DNA of 64,000 nt. Origin: Candidatus Moraniibacteriota bacterium. GTDB taxonomy: Bacteria; Patescibacteriota; Minisyncoccia; Moranbacterales; GCA-2747515. Shown in pieces: positions 19,505-64,000 of the stretch. Each line of letters begins with the position of its first letter. The first letter of the stretch is position 1. A program made the position numbers and the translations under genes. The notes beneath the pieces were generated by a model that saw only the letters and a program-made list of their open reading frames with translations, had not been told where the DNA came from and ran no database searches. The stretch is taken from contig CP065011.1 of assembly GCA_016699795.1 (NCBI GenBank), positions 226,474 to 290,473 of the forward strand, given 5' to 3'.

Positions 19505-21357
19505 CTATTGCACAGTTATCTTCCAACGATGCAGTGCTTGAGAATTTCTTTGTGAACTGCATATATTAGTAGCGCTTGTTTTAAATTTCGCACAGTACAC
19601 ATAGAAAGATCCGTTTGCTATATGATTTGCGGAAGCATTATCACTAACTACCGTACAATATTGATATCCACCATCTAAGCCTTGTTGACTTGCTGGTTCT
19701 TCTACGATAGTTTTTGAGAATTTCCAATTAACACCGTCAACTGATTCATATAGTTTTACAAACGTATTCTGCTGATTCCAAGACATCCGTGATGTAGCAA
19801 AATAGTATCTTTTTGTAAGATTGCTCCATACTATTTGTGAGTGAGAGATTCCTTGAATTCCTAAAGAATCACTCCTTCCTCCCATGCCAGGCTCACTCCA
19901 AATTCCTTGAAAATATTTTTTCCAAAGATTTGTACCTACATGACCCGCTCTAGCAGAAGATATAACATTTCCAAGATTAGCACGTGCAACAGCTACCCCT
20001 GCTCCAGATTTTTCATCGTGAAAATATACATACATATAGCCATCTTTGATCATATAAGGAGCTCCTTGTATATTTCCGATAGGATCCTCTAACTGAGATA
20101 TTATTCGTCCTAAATATTTCCATGTATTCCCACTATCATTTGACCAAGCAAGACCGATACGAGTTTTTCCTGAGCCTGGACTGGAATGACCCACAAGCTC
20201 TTCATGAACAATTCCTATATATTCTGAACCACCAACAGAATAAACACCCACAAGCCAAAGTGCTACAACATCATTCAGACTTGGATTAAAAGATGTAAAG
20301 AAATTAGTGCCCTTATCTACTTCATTTATACAGTATCCTGAAGCATTTCTATTACATGTTTTTTTCATCCATATTGCTGAAGCATAAGGATTATCTAAAG
20401 ATCCCTTAAGTTGTGTATGTCTAATTTCTCCAGTACACACATAACTTGTTGCATACCAATAAGTTCCTCCTGGTAACATTTTTAATGGCCCATCAATCAT
20501 TGTTTCATTGAGTATTCCTCGGGAGGTGTCTGTATTATTTGAAACAATAGTAGCCGGAGAGACGGTGATAGAGCCTCCCGTGTTCGAACCCTTAAACGTA
20601 GCCGTTACATTACGAGCTCGTGTAAGAGATACAGAACACGTCTTACTTGCTCCTCTACAGTCTCCTGCCCATCCTTCAAAAGTATTTCCGCTTTGAGGTG
20701 AAGCTGTGAGTGTAACCTTTGTATTTTGAGGTAATGTTTTTGAACATGTTGTACCACAATTAATTCCAGAAGGATTTGATACTATTGTTCCTGCTCCAGT
20801 ACCAGCTTTTGCTACAGTAAGAGTTTGTTGTCCTTGTTGTGTAGAACAGTTAATTTTCTTTGGTGAACCACTAATGACATTGTTTGGTCCTCCAGAAATA
20901 TCAATAGCATGAATGTATATATTCTTTTCACCTTGATTACGGAATGAGGAAGGAAGTTTACAGTCAAAGCCATGAGTTCCACTAATACCATAACCTTTGT
21001 TTATATCAGGTCTGGAAACTTTTGTTTGACATCCTGCTATAAATTTTCCTCCTTTACCATAAGGAGCTCCTTCATAAAAATGAACCCAGATAGATGTTCT
21101 GGAGTTATCAGGATCATAAGCCCAACCTTTTACACTACAAGCACTGGAGTCAGGACCATCAAAAGCTCCTATAGCAGGTTTAGCACTTGCAGCATCTGAA
21201 AATGGTAAATCAAAAGAAATTCCTGAGAAGATATTCGATGTTGTTGTTTTTTGAATAAGAAGAATACTTCCAAGAAAAAAGCTTATGACAAGAAGAAGAG
21301 AAATGATTTGTATTTTAGAATCTTTTTTTTGTTTTTTTTTGTTTTTTTTGAAAACAT
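19505..21357 (-). CDS. secreted protein with signal peptide, divergent InlB B-repeat domain and a BNR/Asp-box propeller; the ATG is out of frame with the body (indel in a homopolymer tract)
   Basis: The open frame runs from about 21374 to 19505 without an in-frame ATG. An out-of-frame ATG at 21355-21357 gives MFSKKTKKNKK, and a 1-nt insertion in the T8/T9/T8 tracts at 21323-21349 fuses it to DSKIQIISLLLVISFFLGSILLI, a signal peptide. InlB-like segment GTGAGTIVSNPSGINCGTTCSK..VTLTASPQSGNTFEGWAGDC; Asp-box SNDSGNTW. Confidence 0.6.
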
Positions 21358-21496: not shown

Positions 21497-23143
21497 TCAT
21501 TCCGCTTCCAGAAAATAACCATCTTCTCGATTGTATCCTCCCAATTTTTTGTATTTTCCTTTTTTTCCAAAAACCGTAATATCATTATTATCTTTTCCCT
21601 GTACAATCTTTTTGATTCCTATGTTTTTGGCATAGGTTTCAAAATATGTTCGTAGTTGTTCTTTTAATTGATCTTGGTAAGGAATGCTATAATCAGTATT
21701 AGCTTCGATATTATCTACCACAAGAGTTACTTCTTCTGTTTTTTTATTTTTTCCAATCCACAGCCATGCTGCGACTACAGGAATATCTTTTTTTTCATCA
21801 CGAATAGTTACTACTTGCATACCTACATCAGTAAGATAATCAGCTATGGTAGATTCTTCTCCCATATGTTCACTATCTATACGGATACAACAATCTGTAT
21901 AATTTCCAAGATAAAGATCTTCATCCGGATTACGATTCCAAAGTTTTACGCTCATAGGTATTCCTTCAAGAGAAGTTCTTTCTTCCGATTCCAGAAGTGT
22001 GTGTACCGTACGCATATCAGAATGAATATGATCTCTATCTTCCAAAAAAACATTCTTCTCCAAAACAGAAGAGAGAAAGCGTTCTTTGAATCCTTCACCA
22101 AGTACGTTTTTTATGGTATCCGCAAGTCTCTCTTCTATCGATTCCATACGAAGACGAAATGTACCGAATACCTCTCGGAAGGATCGTTCATGATCTGTTT
22201 GTTGTTTTTTGAGTTCGATTCGTTGTTTTCGATATTCCGGTCCGATGTTTCCTTGAAGAGAATGGAGTTTTTCTTCAATATCAGAATATTGCTTGAGAGA
22301 TGAAGAGAGTTGTTCAAATACTTTTTTCACCAAAACTACATCTCCTCGTATACGGTCATAAGCAGGAACCGTTCTTGGATTGGCAATTCTTTGTTCGAGA
22401 GATGCGCTGTGTTTTTCCAATCCTTCTATTCTTCTTTGTAACTTTTCGATAAAAGTTTCATCTCGAAGCTCTTCATTTTTAAGTTCTTCTTGTTTGATAA
22501 GATCTTCAGTTTCTTTCTGTTGTAATCGTTTTGTATGAAGTTCTTCCTCGAGAGATATTGTGTCTTCTGTATATTTTTTTTCTTGGAGATCTTTTTTGAA
22601 TGTTGTTTCGATTATAGTTGCGATACGGGAAAGATAGTTGTTTACATACTGTGAAAACGGCTGAGAACGAGAAGTTTCCAGAAGACGGTGAATATTGTCC
22701 ATCGTGGATACGTCTTGCTCTTTCCCCAAATCGAAGAATGCTTCTTCTTTGTAGTTGAGCCATTCATCTATATTGATTTCTCCTTCTTCGAGAGATTGTA
22801 CTATATTTGGATTGTTTTTGTATTCAAGGAGTCGTTCTTGCATATGTAAACGAAATTCCAAAGAGTCAAGATCACTTTCTTTTGTTTCTTCTTTTGCTTG
22901 GTAAAGAAAATCAATATTTTCTTGAGATGGTATATCGAGAGTTGGATATTTAAGAATCAGTTTTATGGCGTATTTATTCTTCACCAAAGCTTCAGACAGA
23001 AATGGTTTCTCATACATCGTTTCTATGAGATTGTGTTTTTCTTGTGAAGAAAGAGTAAGGAGCTCCAGAAAAGATTCCACGGTCAAGCGAGAGAACAAAT
23101 CGGGAGCATTTTCTTGAATTTCAGAAAGATCTCCTTGGATCAA
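21497..23143 (-). CDS. hypothetical protein with central coiled-coil and Cys-containing C-terminal domain; probably the C-terminal part of a larger repeat protein
   Basis: 548-aa ORF. Its ATG abuts the 84-bp tandem repeat array directly. Confidence 0.5.
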   Translation of the reverse strand: MIQGDLSEIQENAPDLFSRLTVESFLELLTLSSQEKHNLIETMYEKPFLSEALVKNKYAIKLILKYPTLDIPSQENIDFLYQAKEETKESDLDSLEFRLHMQERLLEYKNNPNIVQSLEEGEINIDEWLNYKEEAFFDLGKEQDVSTMDNIHRLLETSRSQPFSQYVNNYLSRIATIIETTFKKDLQEKKYTEDTISLEEELHTKRLQQKETEDLIKQEELKNEELRDETFIEKLQRRIEGLEKHSASLEQRIANPRTVPAYDRIRGDVVLVKKVFEQLSSSLKQYSDIEEKLHSLQGNIGPEYRKQRIELKKQQTDHERSFREVFGTFRLRMESIEERLADTIKNVLGEGFKERFLSSVLEKNVFLEDRDHIHSDMRTVHTLLESEERTSLEGIPMSVKLWNRNPDEDLYLGNYTDCCIRIDSEHMGEESTIADYLTDVGMQVVTIRDEKKDIPVVAAWLWIGKNKKTEEVTLVVDNIEANTDYSIPYQDQLKEQLRTYFETYAKNIGIKKIVQGKDNNDITVFGKKGKYKKLGGYNREDGYFLEAE

Positions 23144-50601: not shown

Positions 50602-50631
50602 ATGATAACAATTCTTTTTTTTAATGTCAAG
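50602..50631 (-). promoter_or_regulatory. candidate promoter for tuf (minus-strand TTGACA-18 nt-TATCAT)
   Basis: Reverse complement of tgtcaa at 50626-50631 and of atgata at 50602-50607; about 170 nt upstream of tuf. Confidence 0.25.
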
Positions 50632-50791: not shown

Positions 50792-52744
50792 TTATTTCAT
50801 TTCAATATGTATACGAGAAGGAATTGAAGATATTCGAGGAAAGAGGAATGTTGGTTCTGCGGGGGTTCGAGTAATATCAATTTTTTCTATTACTCCAGCA
50901 TATTCCATTCTGAGTATTTCCACCACTTCATCAGGTTTTTTTGAAACAACTTCTTGGATAAATTTATCTTTTTCTACAGAAGCCTTCCAATTAACATTTC
51001 CCAAAGCTTTAAATTTTAATATTTCCTTCTCAGTTTCAAATAATATTTCTCCATATTTTATATTATAATCTTCAGGAATCCATGAAACACCTTCTTGTAT
51101 TTTCATATCCTTTGCCACTCGAGATTCAAATTCTTGCCAAACATATTTCTCAAGATCTTTCGTTCGTATAGCTTGTATTTGAATACGTGCCGTCATAGAA
51201 TATTCAAAATTTTTAGCAACTGTGTTTTCACCAGGAAAGGCCTGCGCATCTTCGATCGACACTTTCATTGCCTCTGGAAAAACAGTCCAACCCTCACCCG
51301 AACTTTCTTGTATTCTCTTAAAAGCTTCTTCTTTCACCTTTACTTCCATACTCAAACGAGCCTTTTCCACATCTAAAGAAGAAACGAGAAATATCTCCGA
51401 GCCACTTTTTCCTCCTCCTGTAAAAGAATCTTCAGATTTTGCATAAAAATATTCATATTTTGGAGTCCCTTTCAAGCCAGGAATAGTGAATCGAGAAGGT
51501 TCTTTATTATAAGACTCCCCAGGACCGTCAGCACGAACCTCAACTTCTACTTTTCCTGGAACAATCTCACCATTTTCCGTTTTCTTTCCTGGAACGACAA
51601 CACTTTGAACTGTTCTATATACTTTTTCATCCTCTGAAAGTATTCTTGTTGTTGCAACAAGAACCTGAGATTGTTCGCTATATTCATTATAAATTGTCAC
51701 CAAACCTCCTGATTTTTGAACATTAGAACCAGACCCACCTGTCGCAGGAAATGATTCCGTTAATGTTACTGTCTCAAAAAAAGTTTCTGTTCGAATTTCT
51801 TGATCTTTTCCAGAAGCTGAGAGAGTAATAGGCATTTCTCCTGAAGATGAAACTCGGAGCATATTCAAGACCAAAGTAGCTTCTGGAAGATATTTCCATG
51901 AAAAAAATCCTCCAGTAGCAAGAAGTGTTACTAAAATAAAAATTGCAATCCAAGTAAAAAATGATTTCTTTTTTTCTCTAGGAACATAATTCCTTTCTTT
52001 TTTCTTTTCTTGAAAATCCTCAGTGGGAACTTCAGAATCTTGTTGAAAAGATCCGTATTCTCTCTGATGTAAATTTTCTCTCCCATAAAACTCTTCTATT
52101 TTTTCCCGATTATGGAAATCTGGAACGACTTCAAAAGAATTGTTATTCTCTTTTGGAAAGTCCTTCATCGAATTCATAGAAAGATTTAATGCTGGGTCTT
52201 CAATAGTTTCTTCTTGTTTTTCATTAGAAACAATTTCTTGTTCTTTTGAAGATTTAATTGTTTGTTTTTTTCTCTTTTTAAGAATATTTTTCATCAATCG
52301 AATACTATTTGAGATAGATTTTGTTTCATTTTTATCTTTCTCAGGTTCTTGAAAATCTAAAGAGGAAGAAAAATTTTCTTGTTCATGAGTCAAAGAAAAA
52401 TCCTCTTCAAAAGAATCTTTCATTTCTAAGGGTGATAGAATCTGCGCATCTTGAGGAGATACTCGCAAAGCACCTGATTGCTGAAGTTGAATAAGATAAG
52501 AATATGGCTGTGTTTCTATCCCCGCCCTTCGAGCATACGCTTCTCCTCGAGCGTCCTGTGTTATTATGGCAAAATATTTTCCAGCCCGATCAAGCTCTCT
52601 TTTGAGTAAATAGAGATTAGTCAAACTTTCCAAAATAATCGATCGTTGCGGTACAGCTAAAACAATATTTTTTCCATCCGAACGTTTCGCTCTACTTATG
52701 AGCGACATTATCTCTTCGTCTGGATTTATGTGAATAATCAACAT
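50792..52744 (-). CDS. hypothetical single-pass (bitopic) membrane protein: about 90-aa cytoplasmic domain, long acidic/K-rich low-complexity linker, TM helix, about 380-aa extracellular beta-rich domain; located immediately downstream of ftsA
   Basis: 650-aa ORF. TM segment FFTWIAIFILVTLLATGGFFSW around residue 265. No GGGTGSG tubulin motif, so it is not FtsZ. Confidence 0.6.
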   Translation of the reverse strand: MLIIHINPDEEIMSLISRAKRSDGKNIVLAVPQRSIILESLTNLYLLKRELDRAGKYFAIITQDARGEAYARRAGIETQPYSYLIQLQQSGALRVSPQDAQILSPLEMKDSFEEDFSLTHEQENFSSSLDFQEPEKDKNETKSISNSIRLMKNILKKRKKQTIKSSKEQEIVSNEKQEETIEDPALNLSMNSMKDFPKENNNSFEVVPDFHNREKIEEFYGRENLHQREYGSFQQDSEVPTEDFQEKKKERNYVPREKKKSFFTWIAIFILVTLLATGGFFSWKYLPEATLVLNMLRVSSSGEMPITLSASGKDQEIRTETFFETVTLTESFPATGGSGSNVQKSGGLVTIYNEYSEQSQVLVATTRILSEDEKVYRTVQSVVVPGKKTENGEIVPGKVEVEVRADGPGESYNKEPSRFTIPGLKGTPKYEYFYAKSEDSFTGGGKSGSEIFLVSSLDVEKARLSMEVKVKEEAFKRIQESSGEGWTVFPEAMKVSIEDAQAFPGENTVAKNFEYSMTARIQIQAIRTKDLEKYVWQEFESRVAKDMKIQEGVSWIPEDYNIKYGEILFETEKEILKFKALGNVNWKASVEKDKFIQEVVSKKPDEVVEILRMEYAGVIEKIDITRTPAEPTFLFPRISSIPSRIHIEMK

Positions 52745-52756
52745 ATCAAAATAAAA

Positions 52757-54034
52757 TCAAGAAATATTTTTTGCTGTACGTCGGAGTATATTAGAAAGCA
52801 TTTTTTCCTCCAGTAACATTTCAATCATAAGATTAGCCAGAGCAAGGGGTGTTACATCTTGTGATGAAGTTAATTTTTTCGTCATATCTTTCATTCGAGA
52901 AACATGTTCTGGAAGAAGATAGGTAACCTCCACATCAGGAGAAAAAAATAATTCATTTTTCCACTCTTCTCTTCTCATAGATGTTTCCATTTCAGGAATA
53001 GACACACCTCCCCCACAAAGGAGAATGCGCTTTGGTAAAACATCCGTTTTAAGAAATTCACCCAAAGATATCTCTAATCCCCCTAACCATATATTCACAT
53101 CCTCTTTCATAATTTCATGGACAGAATCAGGATTTATTCTTTCATGTTCCCATTTCTTTCCTGAAGTATAAAAAAGTTTCAATCTTTCTGCCTCCTCAAA
53201 AGAAATTTGAAATTCATATGCAAGATGTTTTGTGAAAGAATGCCCTCCAATAGCAAACATTTTCGTTCCCTCAAGTCCTCCATTACGAACCACTGCTATA
53301 TCTGTGGTCCCTCCTCCAACATCCACAAATACTGCCTGAAAATCTCTATCATCTTCAGAAGAAAATATTCTTGAAACAGCATATGGCTCCGCAACAATAC
53401 TCAAAGACGAAATACCCAATTCATCCGCAATTGTTTCCAAAGCACCAAGATGTATCACCGGAGAATAAGCATTAAATATACTTATAGAAACATTCTTTCC
53501 TTGAAAGCCCACAGGATTACTTACCTTATATCCATCTATACGAACATTTACTACTGCAGCATTAATAAGTTTTATATCCACTGCTTTTTGTTCTGTTTCC
53601 CATTCCAATTGATTCTGAATACGTTCAAATGCCTTTAGTTGAACTTGTCGCATGATTTCTTTCAATTCTGAAATTTCAATTTTAGTATCAGGACGACTCC
53701 TCTCATAGTGAACAGTCATGGTCGTTCCTCGAACGAGCTCTCCGGCAATTCCTAATATCGCACGATCAATATGTTTCGTTCGAGATGCTTTAAGCGCTTC
53801 GTTAAGAGCACATCGGGATGTCTCTAATACACCCTCGATATTTACGATACCTCCACTCAACATATCTCCGGCTCTTTGTTGTTTTTTCCCAACGCCGATG
53901 ACATATCCGCGCTGTTCCTTTTTGTCAAAACGAAAAATTAAAGCCTTTACAACATCAGTTCCAATATCAAGAGCCAGATATCGTTTATTACTTTCTGAAG
54001 AATGAAATATATTTATATTTTCTAAAAAAGACAT
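52757..54034 (-). CDS. ftsA: cell division protein FtsA (actin-like ATPase)
   Basis: LALDIGTDVVKALIF phosphate-1; VDVGGGTTDIAVV phosphate-2; LCGGGVSIP adenosine motif; 425 aa. Confidence 0.8.
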   Translation of the reverse strand: MSFLENINIFHSSESNKRYLALDIGTDVVKALIFRFDKKEQRGYVIGVGKKQQRAGDMLSGGIVNIEGVLETSRCALNEALKASRTKHIDRAILGIAGELVRGTTMTVHYERSRPDTKIEISELKEIMRQVQLKAFERIQNQLEWETEQKAVDIKLINAAVVNVRIDGYKVSNPVGFQGKNVSISIFNAYSPVIHLGALETIADELGISSLSIVAEPYAVSRIFSSEDDRDFQAVFVDVGGGTTDIAVVRNGGLEGTKMFAIGGHSFTKHLAYEFQISFEEAERLKLFYTSGKKWEHERINPDSVHEIMKEDVNIWLGGLEISLGEFLKTDVLPKRILLCGGGVSIPEMETSMRREEWKNELFFSPDVEVTYLLPEHVSRMKDMTKKLTSSQDVTPLALANLMIEMLLEEKMLSNILRRTAKNIS

Positions 54035-61421: not shown

Positions 61422-64000
61422 CTACCCTCCCGTCCAAGCAAAGATTTCTTTGAAGTTCTTTATGATGAGTTCTACAACAGATTCTTTTGTTTGTGGTGTA
61501 AGGGTGATGTAGTCTTTGGTTATGGTTTCATTCCCACTCAGATCTTTTACTATGACTTTGTAAGAGTAGAGAGTTCCTGGTTTCCAAGAGGTGAGTACAA
61601 TGATGTGATTCTTTGTTGGGGAAGAACTTACATTCACTGTTTTTTCTTCTCCTGCTCTTCCTTCTTTGTAGATGAGGGAGGAAGAAGCATCTTCATCTGT
61701 TTGCCAGTTAATAATCATTTGTACTTTTCCGTTTTGTGAAAGAGCGGAGTCGGTAGAGACTCTTTCTACTGTAGGAGAAGTTTCATCTTTTTGCATAGTG
61801 AATTCTATCTCATCAGAGAGAGTTTCATTTCCCATATCATCTCTGACTCGTACAGTAAGAACGTAGTTTTCTCCAGGAGTGAGTTCTTTGAGGGTGAGGG
61901 AGTGAGTTTGGAGGAGGGAGGGATTTCCTTCACTCTTTTGATCTTCTTCTTTGTTTTTGTTTTTGTAGGTTACAAGAGAGTCGGTAAGAGTATCAGTAAG
62001 GAAGTTTACTTTTGCTTCTCTGTCTGAAAGAACTTCTATCTTGATTTCTTTGATTTGTGGTGGAGACTTTGGTTCAAAGGTAGAGTCGGAAGAAGAGAAG
62101 AGATTTTTTGATTCATCTTCTCCTTTTACTCGGAAGTGGTAGGTAGAGTTTTCTAAAAGATTGTTTATGATAATTTCATGATCTTTTTTGAGTTCTTCAC
62201 TTTTTCTTGTTTGTCCATAGTTTTCTGTGTTTCCATATTCAACAATAGAGGTAGTGGGAGTGGAAGTTTTCCATGTGATAGTTGTTTCCCCTATTTGTTT
62301 GGAAGAAGCTTTAATGGAAGAGATGGAAGAAGGAGATTGCGTTTGGAAGGTTTGTTGGGAGGAGGTGCCTATGTTTCCGGCGGTGTCGGAAGATCCTGTG
62401 GAGAAGAAGTATTTAGTAGATGGGATGAGACCTCGAAGAGTTACGGAGTGGGAGGTGGTGTATTTGGTGGGGTCGAAACCTGTAATACTATCAATTGTGG
62501 CATATTCAAGGTCTTTTGTCGTACCATATTTTACTCTACTATCAGAAACTTCATCCGTCTCCCAACTCACCACTGCACTCTCTCCTGTAATGTCTTTGAC
62601 TTTGACTCCTGAGATAGAGGGAGGAGTAGATTCTGCTTGTTCACTTCCACTGTCTACTTGTTTGAGTTTTGTTGTGAAGCTTTTTTCTTCACTCTCTATG
62701 AGGGTTCCAAGATTATCTTCACAAAGAAGTTTGTAGAAGTAGGTTGTGTTAAAGATGAGTCCTCCAAGATGCAGGGAATGGAGTGTGTCATAGATTCCTG
62801 TCGCTTCTGTTTGAGGAACTTCTTGGTAGTTTCTTGATTGGGTTCCATATTCAAGGATGCAGTTTGCTGCTTGATCCGTCTGGAAGGTTATGACTGCTTT
62901 TTGATCAGTGAGTACTTTAGGAGGATCACTGATAGTATGAATCTTTGAAAGAGGTGCATGATTGTATTCTGGATCTAAGGTTGTTTTCATTGTTTGTATA
63001 TCACTCTGTGATTCGTTTTGATTGATATCTTTAACACTCACTTGATATTCATACTCTGTATCAGGAGTAAGAGTATCGAGTACCCTGTAGTGAGATCTAT
63101 CGTATGTTGTTCCTTGTTCTGTTTGTGTGAAGGTAAGGCTTCCTTTTTTTCTGTACTGAAGGAGGAAGGATGCTTCTTCATCTGTGTTTGCTGTAATAAC
63201 TGCTTTGTCATTTGAGATAAGAGATGTTTGAAGATTCGTTATGGTAGGAGGTGTTTCGTCGAGTGTTGTAGAGAATTGAAAATAGTTTCCTCCATTATTG
63301 TCATTGGCAATGTTTCCTTGTGAGTCGGTGGAGGTAACGTAGAAATAGTAGGTGGTTCCTTGAGTAAGAGCATCTAAGGTTACTTGATGATTTTTTGTAA
63401 GAACACTTGATCCGGAGAGAGTGATAGGATCGATAAGAGATCCATTCTTGTTTTCACTGTAATGGAGTACAGAGTCTGCAGGGACATTCGTATTCCAGAA
63501 TATGGTTGCTTGTGTGTTAGAAGCACTTGATACCGCTACACCACTGATAGAAGGTCCAGGATTCGTTGTGACTTCATATCCATTGCCATTATTGTCATTG
63601 ACTCCGGTATTGCCTTGAGGATCAGTAGAGGCAACTCTAAAGAAGTAGGGAGTGTTTGGTGTGAGGTTGGTAAGAGTGACTCTATGAAGTCCTGATTGTG
63701 CTTGGGTGTCAGCATAGGTAGAGACTCCTGTTTGTTTGGTATAGGTGTTGGGAGTGGTTGCATATTCTACACGAGAGTCAGAGAGTTCATCTGTTTCCCA
63801 TGTGATAGTTACGGTTGTGGTGTCTTTAGATTCTACGGTTACGTTTTGTAGAACAGGAGGGGTTTGATCTGATCCTCCTCCACCTTCTCCGAAGTCTTGA
63901 ATACCATTTGCTTTCATCGTAACGGTTTGTGAGAAGAAAGAAACATTTCCTGGTGTGTCTGTTGTCTTTGCTTTGTAGGTGTAGAGAATGTCTGGTTGTG
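61422..64000 (-). CDS. very large extracellular protein built of repeated fibronectin type III-like domains (C-terminal 860 or more aa; N-terminus beyond window end)
   Basis: The ORF stays open past 63917 to the window edge. Recurring domain of about 95 aa, PPxISxVxVxxITxxSAxVSWETDExSDSRVxYGTT...HSVTLxGLxPSTxYxF. Confidence 0.7.
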   Translation of the reverse strand, partial: QPDILYTYKAKTTDTPGNVSFFSQTVTMKANGIQDFGEGGGGSDQTPPVLQNVTVESKDTTTVTITWETDELSDSRVEYATTPNTYTKQTGVSTYADTQAQSGLHRVTLTNLTPNTPYFFRVASTDPQGNTGVNDNNGNGYEVTTNPGPSISGVAVSSASNTQATIFWNTNVPADSVLHYSENKNGSLIDPITLSGSSVLTKNHQVTLDALTQGTTYYFYVTSTDSQGNIANDNNGGNYFQFSTTLDETPPTITNLQTSLISNDKAVITANTDEEASFLLQYRKKGSLTFTQTEQGTTYDRSHYRVLDTLTPDTEYEYQVSVKDINQNESQSDIQTMKTTLDPEYNHAPLSKIHTISDPPKVLTDQKAVITFQTDQAANCILEYGTQSRNYQEVPQTEATGIYDTLHSLHLGGLIFNTTYFYKLLCEDNLGTLIESEEKSFTTKLKQVDSGSEQAESTPPSISGVKVKDITGESAVVSWETDEVSDSRVKYGTTKDLEYATIDSITGFDPTKYTTSHSVTLRGLIPSTKYFFSTGSSDTAGNIGTSSQQTFQTQSPSSISSIKASSKQIGETTITWKTSTPTTSIVEYGNTENYGQTRKSEELKKDHEIIINNLLENSTYHFRVKGEDESKNLFSSSDSTFEPKSPPQIKEIKIEVLSDREAKVNFLTDTLTDSLVTYKNKNKEEDQKSEGNPSLLQTHSLTLKELTPGENYVLTVRVRDDMGNETLSDEIEFTMQKDETSPTVERVSTDSALSQNGKVQMIINWQTDEDASSSLIYKEGRAGEEKTVNVSSSPTKNHIIVLTSWKPGTLYSYKVIVKDLSGNETITKDYITLTPQTKESVVELIIKNFKEIFAWTGG

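Follow-up and report, generated by a model that had tools for sequence, protein, structure and literature searches.

What kind of protein is encoded directly behind an ftsA-type gene, and does it connect a cytoplasmic actin-like protein to the outside of the cell? This question is raised by a locus in a 64,000-nucleotide stretch of contig CP065011.1 (positions 226,474 to 290,473), here called the window, which comes from a metagenome-assembled genome (MAG) of Candidatus Moraniibacteriota within the Patescibacteria, or Candidate Phyla Radiation (CPR). The gene in question, the target (50792..52744), encodes a bitopic membrane protein of 650 amino acids (aa), and the gene upstream of it, the partner (52757..54034), encodes a 425-aa FtsA-family actin-like ATPase. 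Both genes and all of their features described below lie on the minus strand. The exact window proteins are deposited at NCBI as QQS61583.1 (target; hypothetical protein IPN70_01480) and QQS61584.1 (partner; "rod shape-determining protein"), both from the Moraniibacteriota MAG. With somewhat better than even confidence, we favor a model in which the target is a bitopic adaptor that couples the FtsA-type protein to the envelope in division or envelope morphogenesis, most likely in division. The adaptor part of this model is drawn from a conserved cytoplasmic module in the target, the covariation of that module with the state of the partner, and the translationally tight arrangement of the two genes. 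Systems that pair an actin-like protein and a bitopic adaptor are of a known kind; here the family is unnamed and its cytoplasmic domain is new.

Architecture of the target and its family

The partner open reading frame (ORF) ends in TGA, which is followed by a spacer of 12 nucleotides (nt) (ttttattttgat; 52745..52756) without a terminator and then by the ATG start codon of the target; both genes are in the same frame. A strong sigma-70-like promoter match 5' of tuf (50602..50630, minus strand) agrees with the consensus at 11 of 12 hexamer positions and has an extended TG; it is a consensus match only, and it likely marks the downstream end of the two-gene unit. A previous reading of this locus from its sequence alone (the sequence-only reading) had described a 650-aa single-pass protein 12 nt behind an ftsA-type gene, and the ORF, the spacer and the single transmembrane (TM) segment are all as it described.

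An AlphaFold2 model of the target was built with 49 homologs. Its predicted local distance difference test (pLDDT) score is above 90 at residues 1-90 and 261-650 and below 50 at residues 104-260. The cytoplasmic N-domain (aa 1-92; 52469..52744) is a minimal four-stranded Rossmann-like alpha/beta sandwich (beta-alpha x4), and the same four-stranded beta-alpha sandwich was obtained when the domain was modeled alone (pLDDT 92.6). Its invariant alignment columns are DEEI, P32, S40, LLKRE (46-50), K56 and D64. The low-pLDDT region that follows is a disordered cytoplasmic linker of ~160 aa rich in E, K, S and P (aa 93-260; 51965..52468); linker length across the family has a median of 167 aa and a range of 37 to 249 aa. 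The single TM helix (aa 261-284; 51893..51964) was placed at 262-284 by the model and at 261-283, as the only hydrophobic segment, by a hydropathy scan. Basic residues are enriched N-terminal to it, in agreement with an N-in orientation, with family means of 3.9 K+R per 15 aa before the helix versus 2.3 after it. The extracytoplasmic domain (aa 285-650; 50795..51892) is built from beta-strands and a beta-barrel, after which come two alpha-beta-beta units and a small alpha/beta end, and it is the best-conserved part of the target family. The N-terminal domain of about 90 aa, the low-complexity linker and the TM helix of the sequence-only reading are thus borne out by the model and the hydropathy scan. 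Its extracellular beta-rich domain of about 380 aa is also real, but it measures ~365 aa and is of mixed beta/alpha character: strands predominate, four long helices accompany them, and the pLDDT is mostly above 90. Both the N-domain and the ectodomain are confidently folded.

The N-domain is a new cytoplasmic domain. Among all proteins of the 89 loci described below it is confined to the target family, and its fold matches in the PDB are insignificant (best E=0.06, TM-score ~0.5), going to generic B12-binding, STAS, REC and USP folds. The acidic residues after beta1 (DEE) and beta3 (D64-E/x-x-G) occupy the metal- or phosphoryl-binding positions of Toprim and receiver domains. A Toprim- or REC-like identity of the N-domain is no more than an idea, there being no Pfam match and no significant fold match.

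Within the ectodomain, Pfam PF21110 and Foldseek point to a small beta-barrel of the GlxA/baseplate-J type (aa 340-436; 51437..51727), which carries most of the invariant residues (G347, N353, Q360, T366, R367, A405, G409, P422 and G423). The target itself scores 24.2 bits against PF21110 (GlxA beta-barrel) at aa 344-430, under the cutoff of 27 bits, which the homologs P0039 (28.0), P0045 (27.4) and P0043 (43.8) pass; Pfam and NCBIfam gave no assignment for the target, and this subthreshold match was their sole signal. Foldseek matched the barrel to GlxA (4.5e-8) and to Mu and other baseplate wedge proteins (~2e-5) in the PDB, and to Baseplate J-like proteins in BFVD (1e-7 to 1e-3). Residues 340-436 resemble the Baseplate J, T4 gp6 and Mu gp47 wedge proteins and the GlxA barrel (PF21110, PF04865) in both sequence and fold. 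The resemblance is limited to a shared barrel domain. The PHROG phrog_6 match covers only aa 343-418, and that to PF04865 (Baseplate_J) only profile positions 22-109 of 255, with P0043 reaching 20.5 bits against a cutoff of 21.1; whole wedge proteins superpose poorly on the target (root-mean-square deviation 27-40 Å, TM-score <0.25), and the family profile returned only low-complexity noise and a weak GlxA match from the PDB sequences. Unlike baseplate proteins, the target is membrane anchored and stands in a housekeeping context with no other tail or baseplate genes nearby.

Because the outer barrel is strongly conserved, it implies a specific extracellular ligand, for which wall material, a synthase or a different protein of the envelope would be candidates. 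It also lends weight to a different explanation of the locus, in which the two genes are merely co-transcribed housekeeping neighbors and the target is an independent envelope or surface protein that binds the wall or contacts a host, or a domesticated phage baseplate protein. The high conservation of the ectodomain relative to the rest of the target would fit such an independent function. The phage likeness, however, ends at the ~90-aa barrel and the locus has no phage genes nearby, and on these grounds we rejected an identity of the target as a phage baseplate protein. The broader form of this explanation is taken up again below, with the evidence from the short forms of the family.

The target family is a very large, unnamed family of Patescibacteria without a domain model. 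A first search with the target gave 50 relatives, all unnamed and all from Patescibacteria. An exhaustive profile search over 1.84 billion 50%-identity representatives brought the family to 14,118 representatives at 50% identity, with 7,498 at E<=1e-30, and the best 150 representative matches each span the whole family profile; a profile search of a 5.8-billion protein set, prefiltered by words, added one new member only. When the species genomes of GTDB were scanned with two peptides of the family, built from 11 closer sequences, 412 target loci were confirmed, the 80 best of which belong to Moranbacteria, Paceibacterota, Portnoy-, Wildermuth-, Ryan-, Yanofsky- and Nealsonbacteria, among others. 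Some of the MAGs were labeled otherwise by their submitters, for example as "uncultured Bdellovibrionales," with the gene context being the same. No description of the target family was found in full-text literature searches.

A divergent FtsA relative as the conserved neighbor

Judged from its sequence, the partner is a divergent member of the FtsA family and not MreB, a genuine MreB being encoded by a separate gene in organisms that carry the pair. It matches Pfam FtsA with 60.7 bits (cutoff 31.8; E 2.3e-16), and the sequence-only reading, which had called the gene ftsA, was correct about the family. The partner is nevertheless divergent, as it reaches 103.7 bits against the FtsA equivalog TIGR01174, below the cutoff of 175.85. 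A profile of 19 diverse family members was compared with the PDB and matched the solved Vibrio FtsA at 3.3e-23 over IA and IC (FtsA residues 4-263) and E. coli FtsA at 3e-18. Weaker matches were obtained to Myxococcus PilM (3.7e-14, C-terminal half only), other PilM proteins (~1e-7) and MreB (7e-8). The nucleotide motifs are complete (LDIGT, DVGGGT and CGGG), and more than 100 clusters lie at 53-57% identity to the partner. The partner combines several attributes of an FtsA, namely, an actin fold with the IC domain, the nucleotide motifs and a C-terminal tail predicted to be amphipathic. This tail (KMLSNILRRTAKNI; 52763..52804) is basic, has a hydrophobic moment of 0.76, which is above the 99th percentile of 14-mers in the same protein, and is a candidate membrane-targeting helix and/or docking tail; its motif L..ILRR is kept across diverse Patescibacteria. 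FtsA is known to bind the membrane via a C-terminal amphipathic helix (PMC7613929).

The sequence-only reading had stressed a tight coupling of the target to ftsA, and this coupling is maintained well beyond the window. With a hidden Markov model built from Moranbacteria-type FtsA-like proteins, we detected the partner directly upstream of the target on the same strand at 69 of 89 loci, at a median gap of 21 nt. Among the 68 loci with an N-domain and with upstream context, it was there at 66. The adjacency of the co-directional genes was seen both ways, starting from target homologs and from FtsA-like homologs, and the architecture and the pairing recur in dozens of independent loci. When all neighbors were clustered, the partner was the sole conserved neighbor without a housekeeping function.

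Long forms, short forms and the state of the partner

The members of the target family that carry the N-domain (long forms) have a well-conserved partner. The short forms (~410-480 aa) are without the N-domain and have instead the peptide Phi-D-I-I-P-P at the N terminus, as in FFDIIPPGRR, MQDIIPPKKR and IQDIIPPARSK; Phi-D[IV][IV]PP occurs at residues 3-29 in 22 of 25 short forms, where shuffled sequences give an expectation of 0.27. The state of the partner follows this division. Where the target has the N-domain, the partner is strong at 61 loci, weak at 5 and absent at 2; where the N-domain is missing, the partner is strong at 1 locus (a truncated ORF), weak at 3 and absent at 11. The association between the N-domain and a conserved partner is significant by Fisher's test (p=6e-9), although this p value is not corrected for phylogeny, a caveat that weighs against the model.

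In the weak partners, the phosphate-1, phosphate-2 and adenosine motifs are gone, which makes these proteins pseudo-ATPases; they have no FtsA Pfam match or only a weak one to Ppx-GppA. Such partners lie directly upstream of the target in Paceibacteria-type lineages (L004:4802-5977, L005:4851-5972, L046:2499-3737, L071:6366-7532, L077:6144-7388 and L088:8241-9413), and in two of them, L046 and L077, the ILKRR C-terminal tail persists. Eleven short-form loci have no partner, and at 7 of them (L044, L064, L066, L067, L069, L082 and L084) alaS is directly upstream of the target. Their Phi-DIIPP peptide is nonetheless conserved, which implies that the binding partner is encoded elsewhere. More generally, the retention of Phi-DIIPP next to a degenerate or absent partner implies a different or an additional binding partner. 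In three long forms (L031, P0298 and P0307) the N-domain is present and the linker contains a strict DI(I/L)PP motif, which suggests that the N-domain and the peptide are related steps of one evolutionary series. In one clade of long forms (L059, L075, L038, L040 and L079), the linker has a second motif, (L/F)L(V/I)(E/D)ELKP, at residues ~113-147, which could be another docking site.

The short forms bear on the explanation that the target functions independently of the partner, since they include targets with no adjacent actin-fold gene, seven of them directly behind alaS. Under that explanation, however, one would have to account for an adjacency that is kept while all other neighbors vary, for an N-domain that covaries with the partner, and for a conserved cytoplasmic module and peptide that imply a cytoplasmic ligand. 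We regard an independent function as quite unlikely.

The N-terminal peptide of the short forms is also relevant to the idea that the pair is an alignment module of a type IV pilus or competence pilus, with the partner as the PilM analogue and the target as a PilN/PilO-like platform protein. As in the PilM-PilN(-PilO) system, an actin-like protein with an IC-type domain has its bitopic partner encoded immediately downstream. The N-terminal Phi-NLLP peptide of PilN docks in PilM (bioRxiv 10.1101/2022.09.21.508927), and Phi-D-I-I-P-P fits the PilN pattern Phi-[N/D]-Phi-Phi-P. The partner has PilM_2 Pfam matches at E ~1e-7, the target ectodomain contains alpha-beta-beta units, and type IV pili are abundant in Patescibacteria (PMC9938205). 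However, no pilB, pilC, pilT, pilO or pilin genes were found among the conserved neighbors of 87 loci, and the partner profile fits FtsA better, including the IC domain, while PilM is matched over its C-terminal half only. The partner also bears the FtsA-like amphipathic tail, and the target in the window, being a long form, does not have the strict motif. No homology of the target to PilN or PilO was detected by Pfam (PF05137 is not matched), and neither PilN/PilO nor FtsQ or SPOR folds are among its top 50 PDB fold matches; a PilN/PilO identity was accordingly rejected. A pilus module is, in our view, very unlikely.

Genomic setting and a model for the pair

The sequence-only reading had noted that the target occupies the position of ftsZ behind ftsA. 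This proved to be a coincidence of position, as the pair is embedded in a housekeeping backbone that consists of alaS or pfkB-eno-pgk upstream and infA-rpsM-rpsK-rpsD-rpoA-rplQ-rplM-rpsI or, in the window, tuf and the S10 operon downstream; alaS recurs near long-form pairs at 45 loci. Its statements that the target has no tubulin/FtsZ signature and that the window has no ftsZ hold by both regular expression and Pfam, with no GGGTG[ST]G signature among the ORFs of the window or of 88 loci and no Pfam match of the target to FtsZ/tubulin at E<=1. It was also right that the target is neither FtsQ/DivIB nor FtsN. No match to POTRA_1 or FtsQ, and none to SPOR, was obtained at E<=1, no FtsQ/DivIB fold is among the top 50 in the PDB, and the ectodomain differs in fold from that of FtsN.

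Genes of envelope synthesis are scattered around the pair. A stand-alone mraY lies ~7 kb upstream in 25 loci, and murA (17 loci) and mreB (27 loci) lie ~7-8 kb downstream. The mraY genes (for example, L007:4680-5786 and L027:4147-5256) score 183-191 bits against TIGR00445, slightly under the cutoff of 192, and sit between a dacA-like carboxypeptidase gene and pgk, apart from mur and fts genes. From the scattering of mraY and murA it follows that the dcw (division and cell wall) cluster is fragmented in Moranbacteria-type genomes. In one locus (L035:6092-10735), the genes for the FtsA-like protein, the target, mreB, mreC, mreD and pbp2 follow one another in the same direction, and in another (L051:4913-9217), mreBCD-pbp2 begins one gene further downstream of the pair. 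These ultra-small bacteria thus keep a full elongasome core.

Together with the pseudo-ATPase and absent partners, the mreBCD-pbp2 adjacency in these two loci makes a role in elongation or in the envelope generally possible as well. In its specific form, this alternative holds that the target is a RodZ-like cell shape adaptor and that the pair serves MreBCD-PBP2 in lateral or general wall synthesis rather than the Z-ring. In overall layout the target does match RodZ, with a linker and a single TM helix between a small, folded N-domain in the cytoplasm and a beta-rich domain outside, a genuine mreB or murA lies within 10 kb of the target at the loci counted above, and ftsZ was not found within 10 kb at any of the 89. 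RodZ binds the actin-like MreB through its N-domain, to which a contact by the target N-domain can be likened by layout only. Against an elongasome role, the invariably adjacent gene is of the FtsA family and not mreB, and in most loci the alpha ribosomal operon separates mreB from the pair, such that the link may reflect a conserved genome backbone. RodZ itself was rejected as an identity for the target, whose N-domain is Rossmann-like rather than a helix-turn-helix (HTH) and which matches neither HTH nor DUF4115. We consider an elongasome adaptor unlikely.

Several observations weigh against the adaptor model that we favor. The partner stays below the FtsA equivalog cutoff, and the N-domain has no informative structural relative in the fold search of the PDB. 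In several Paceibacteria-type lineages, the partner is motif-less or missing beside the target while the Phi-DIIPP peptide persists, and in the window protein the motif is missing from the N terminus and has just a loose counterpart in the linker (FEVVPDF). No ftsZ signature occurs within 10 kb of the target in the 89 loci. According to one survey, CPR ftsZ neighborhoods keep an FtsA-domain gene (PMC9871819), and the partner could therefore be a second FtsA copy outside the dcw cluster. Since that cluster is fragmented, distance from ftsZ alone is no proof that the partner is a paralog.

Our preferred model of a bitopic adaptor would work as follows. The FtsA-like protein probably sits at the inner face of the membrane via its basic amphipathic C-terminal helix, where it would be engaged by the cytoplasmic N-terminal module of the target. 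In long forms, this module would be the small Rossmann-like domain, and the flexible ~160-aa tether would let it reach the filament layer beneath the membrane. In short forms, Phi-D-I-I-P-P would take its place and bind the IA-IC cleft, as the analogy with PilN-PilM and FtsN-FtsA suggests. Outside the membrane, the ectodomain, with its barrel and alpha/beta domains, would act on the wall or on wall synthases. In this way a cytoplasmic filament or scaffold would be tied to the growth of the envelope, with division as the most likely setting. The sequence-only reading had likewise proposed a divisome component that links FtsA to the cell exterior. The transmembrane-linker layout and the co-occurrence of the N-domain with the partner agree with the link; the division role is read from the family of the partner only, and the broader role in division or morphogenesis from that family together with the mraY, murA and mreBCD-pbp2 genes that lie dispersed around the pair.

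A close parallel to this model is FtsA-FtsN, in which an FtsA-type protein with an amphipathic C-terminal helix is likewise combined with a bitopic N-in membrane protein. The E. coli ftsN gene is unlinked from ftsA, unlike the target gene, which adjoins the gene for the FtsA-like protein. FtsN touches FtsA with its cytoplasmic N terminus and acts on wall synthesis with its outer part, and the IA-IC cleft of the actin-like partner is bound by both FtsN and PilN (PMC7613929). The topology of the target is consistent with this layout, and binding to the FtsA cleft is proposed by analogy. The two bitopic proteins differ in that the target is unrelated to FtsN in sequence and fold and lacks a SPOR domain, and in that the cytoplasmic part of FtsN is a 30-aa tail, whereas that of the target is a folded 90-aa domain on a ~160-aa tether. 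A further likeness is to ZipA, which has a globular cytoplasmic domain, a charged disordered tether and an N-terminal TM helix, and no ectodomain. A globular domain on a long, charged and disordered tether is suited to reaching a sub-membrane filament layer. The orientation of ZipA is opposite to that of the target and the two share no homology; the domains that define ZipA are not present in the target, and membership was rejected.

The rest of the window is occupied by housekeeping genes (dprA, topA, relA/spoT, parAB, folD, uppP, glmS, pentose-phosphate genes, ribosomal operons, eno and pgk), with some additional features. An 831-aa protein with about seven repeats of the FN3 or purple-acid-phosphatase-N type (61422-63917, minus strand) is likely to be a large surface protein, and an FN3-type fragment related to it is encoded ahead of the target in locus L022. 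Two genes at the left end may together mark a mobile or defense island. One (1242-2756, plus strand) encodes a large serine recombinase of 504 aa with Resolvase, Recombinase and zinc ribbon domains; the product of the other (7505-9127, minus strand) is 540 aa long and combines three treble-clef zinc fingers of the DUF4379 type with a CapR domain. Two further proteins, of 548 aa (21497-23143, minus strand) and 331 aa (19505-20500, minus strand), had no Pfam match. Between 15 kb and 64 kb, almost every gene lies on the minus strand, and the GC skew is negative over nearly the whole window and positive in the last 2 kb, with a cumulative minimum at ~62 kb; this turn (~62000-64000) may be a replication-related strand switch. 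In locus L008 (7061-8833), four tandem small genes of the type IV secretion system pilin/TrbC (VirB2-like) type are inserted between eno and pfkB, a short way upstream of the FtsA-like gene; this arrangement was seen in one Patescibacteria genome.

Patescibacteria account for a large part of the diversity of bacteria, and their division and envelope building are almost unknown. If the target is the membrane partner of FtsA, it would supply the missing link between cytoplasm and exterior in the CPR divisome. We also raise, as a tentative possibility that we hold less likely than not to be correct, that the pair is the core of a transmembrane coupling machine specific to Patescibacteria, in which an FtsA-type filament, or in some lineages a pseudo-ATPase scaffold, is wired by way of the new Rossmann-like docking domain or the PilN-like peptide to an extracellular baseplate-J-type domain; this domain would organize septal or envelope synthesis, or host-cell contact, and would stand in for links of the FtsN and FtsQLB type. 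If this were true, the pair would be a previously unrecognized, phylum-wide component of the divisome or of morphogenesis. The split into long and short forms and the parallel decay of the ATPase motifs provide a natural experiment in the coevolution of an actin-like protein and its bitopic adaptor. In a family that is phylum-wide and uncharacterized, the pair offers concrete proteins that are open to direct testing.

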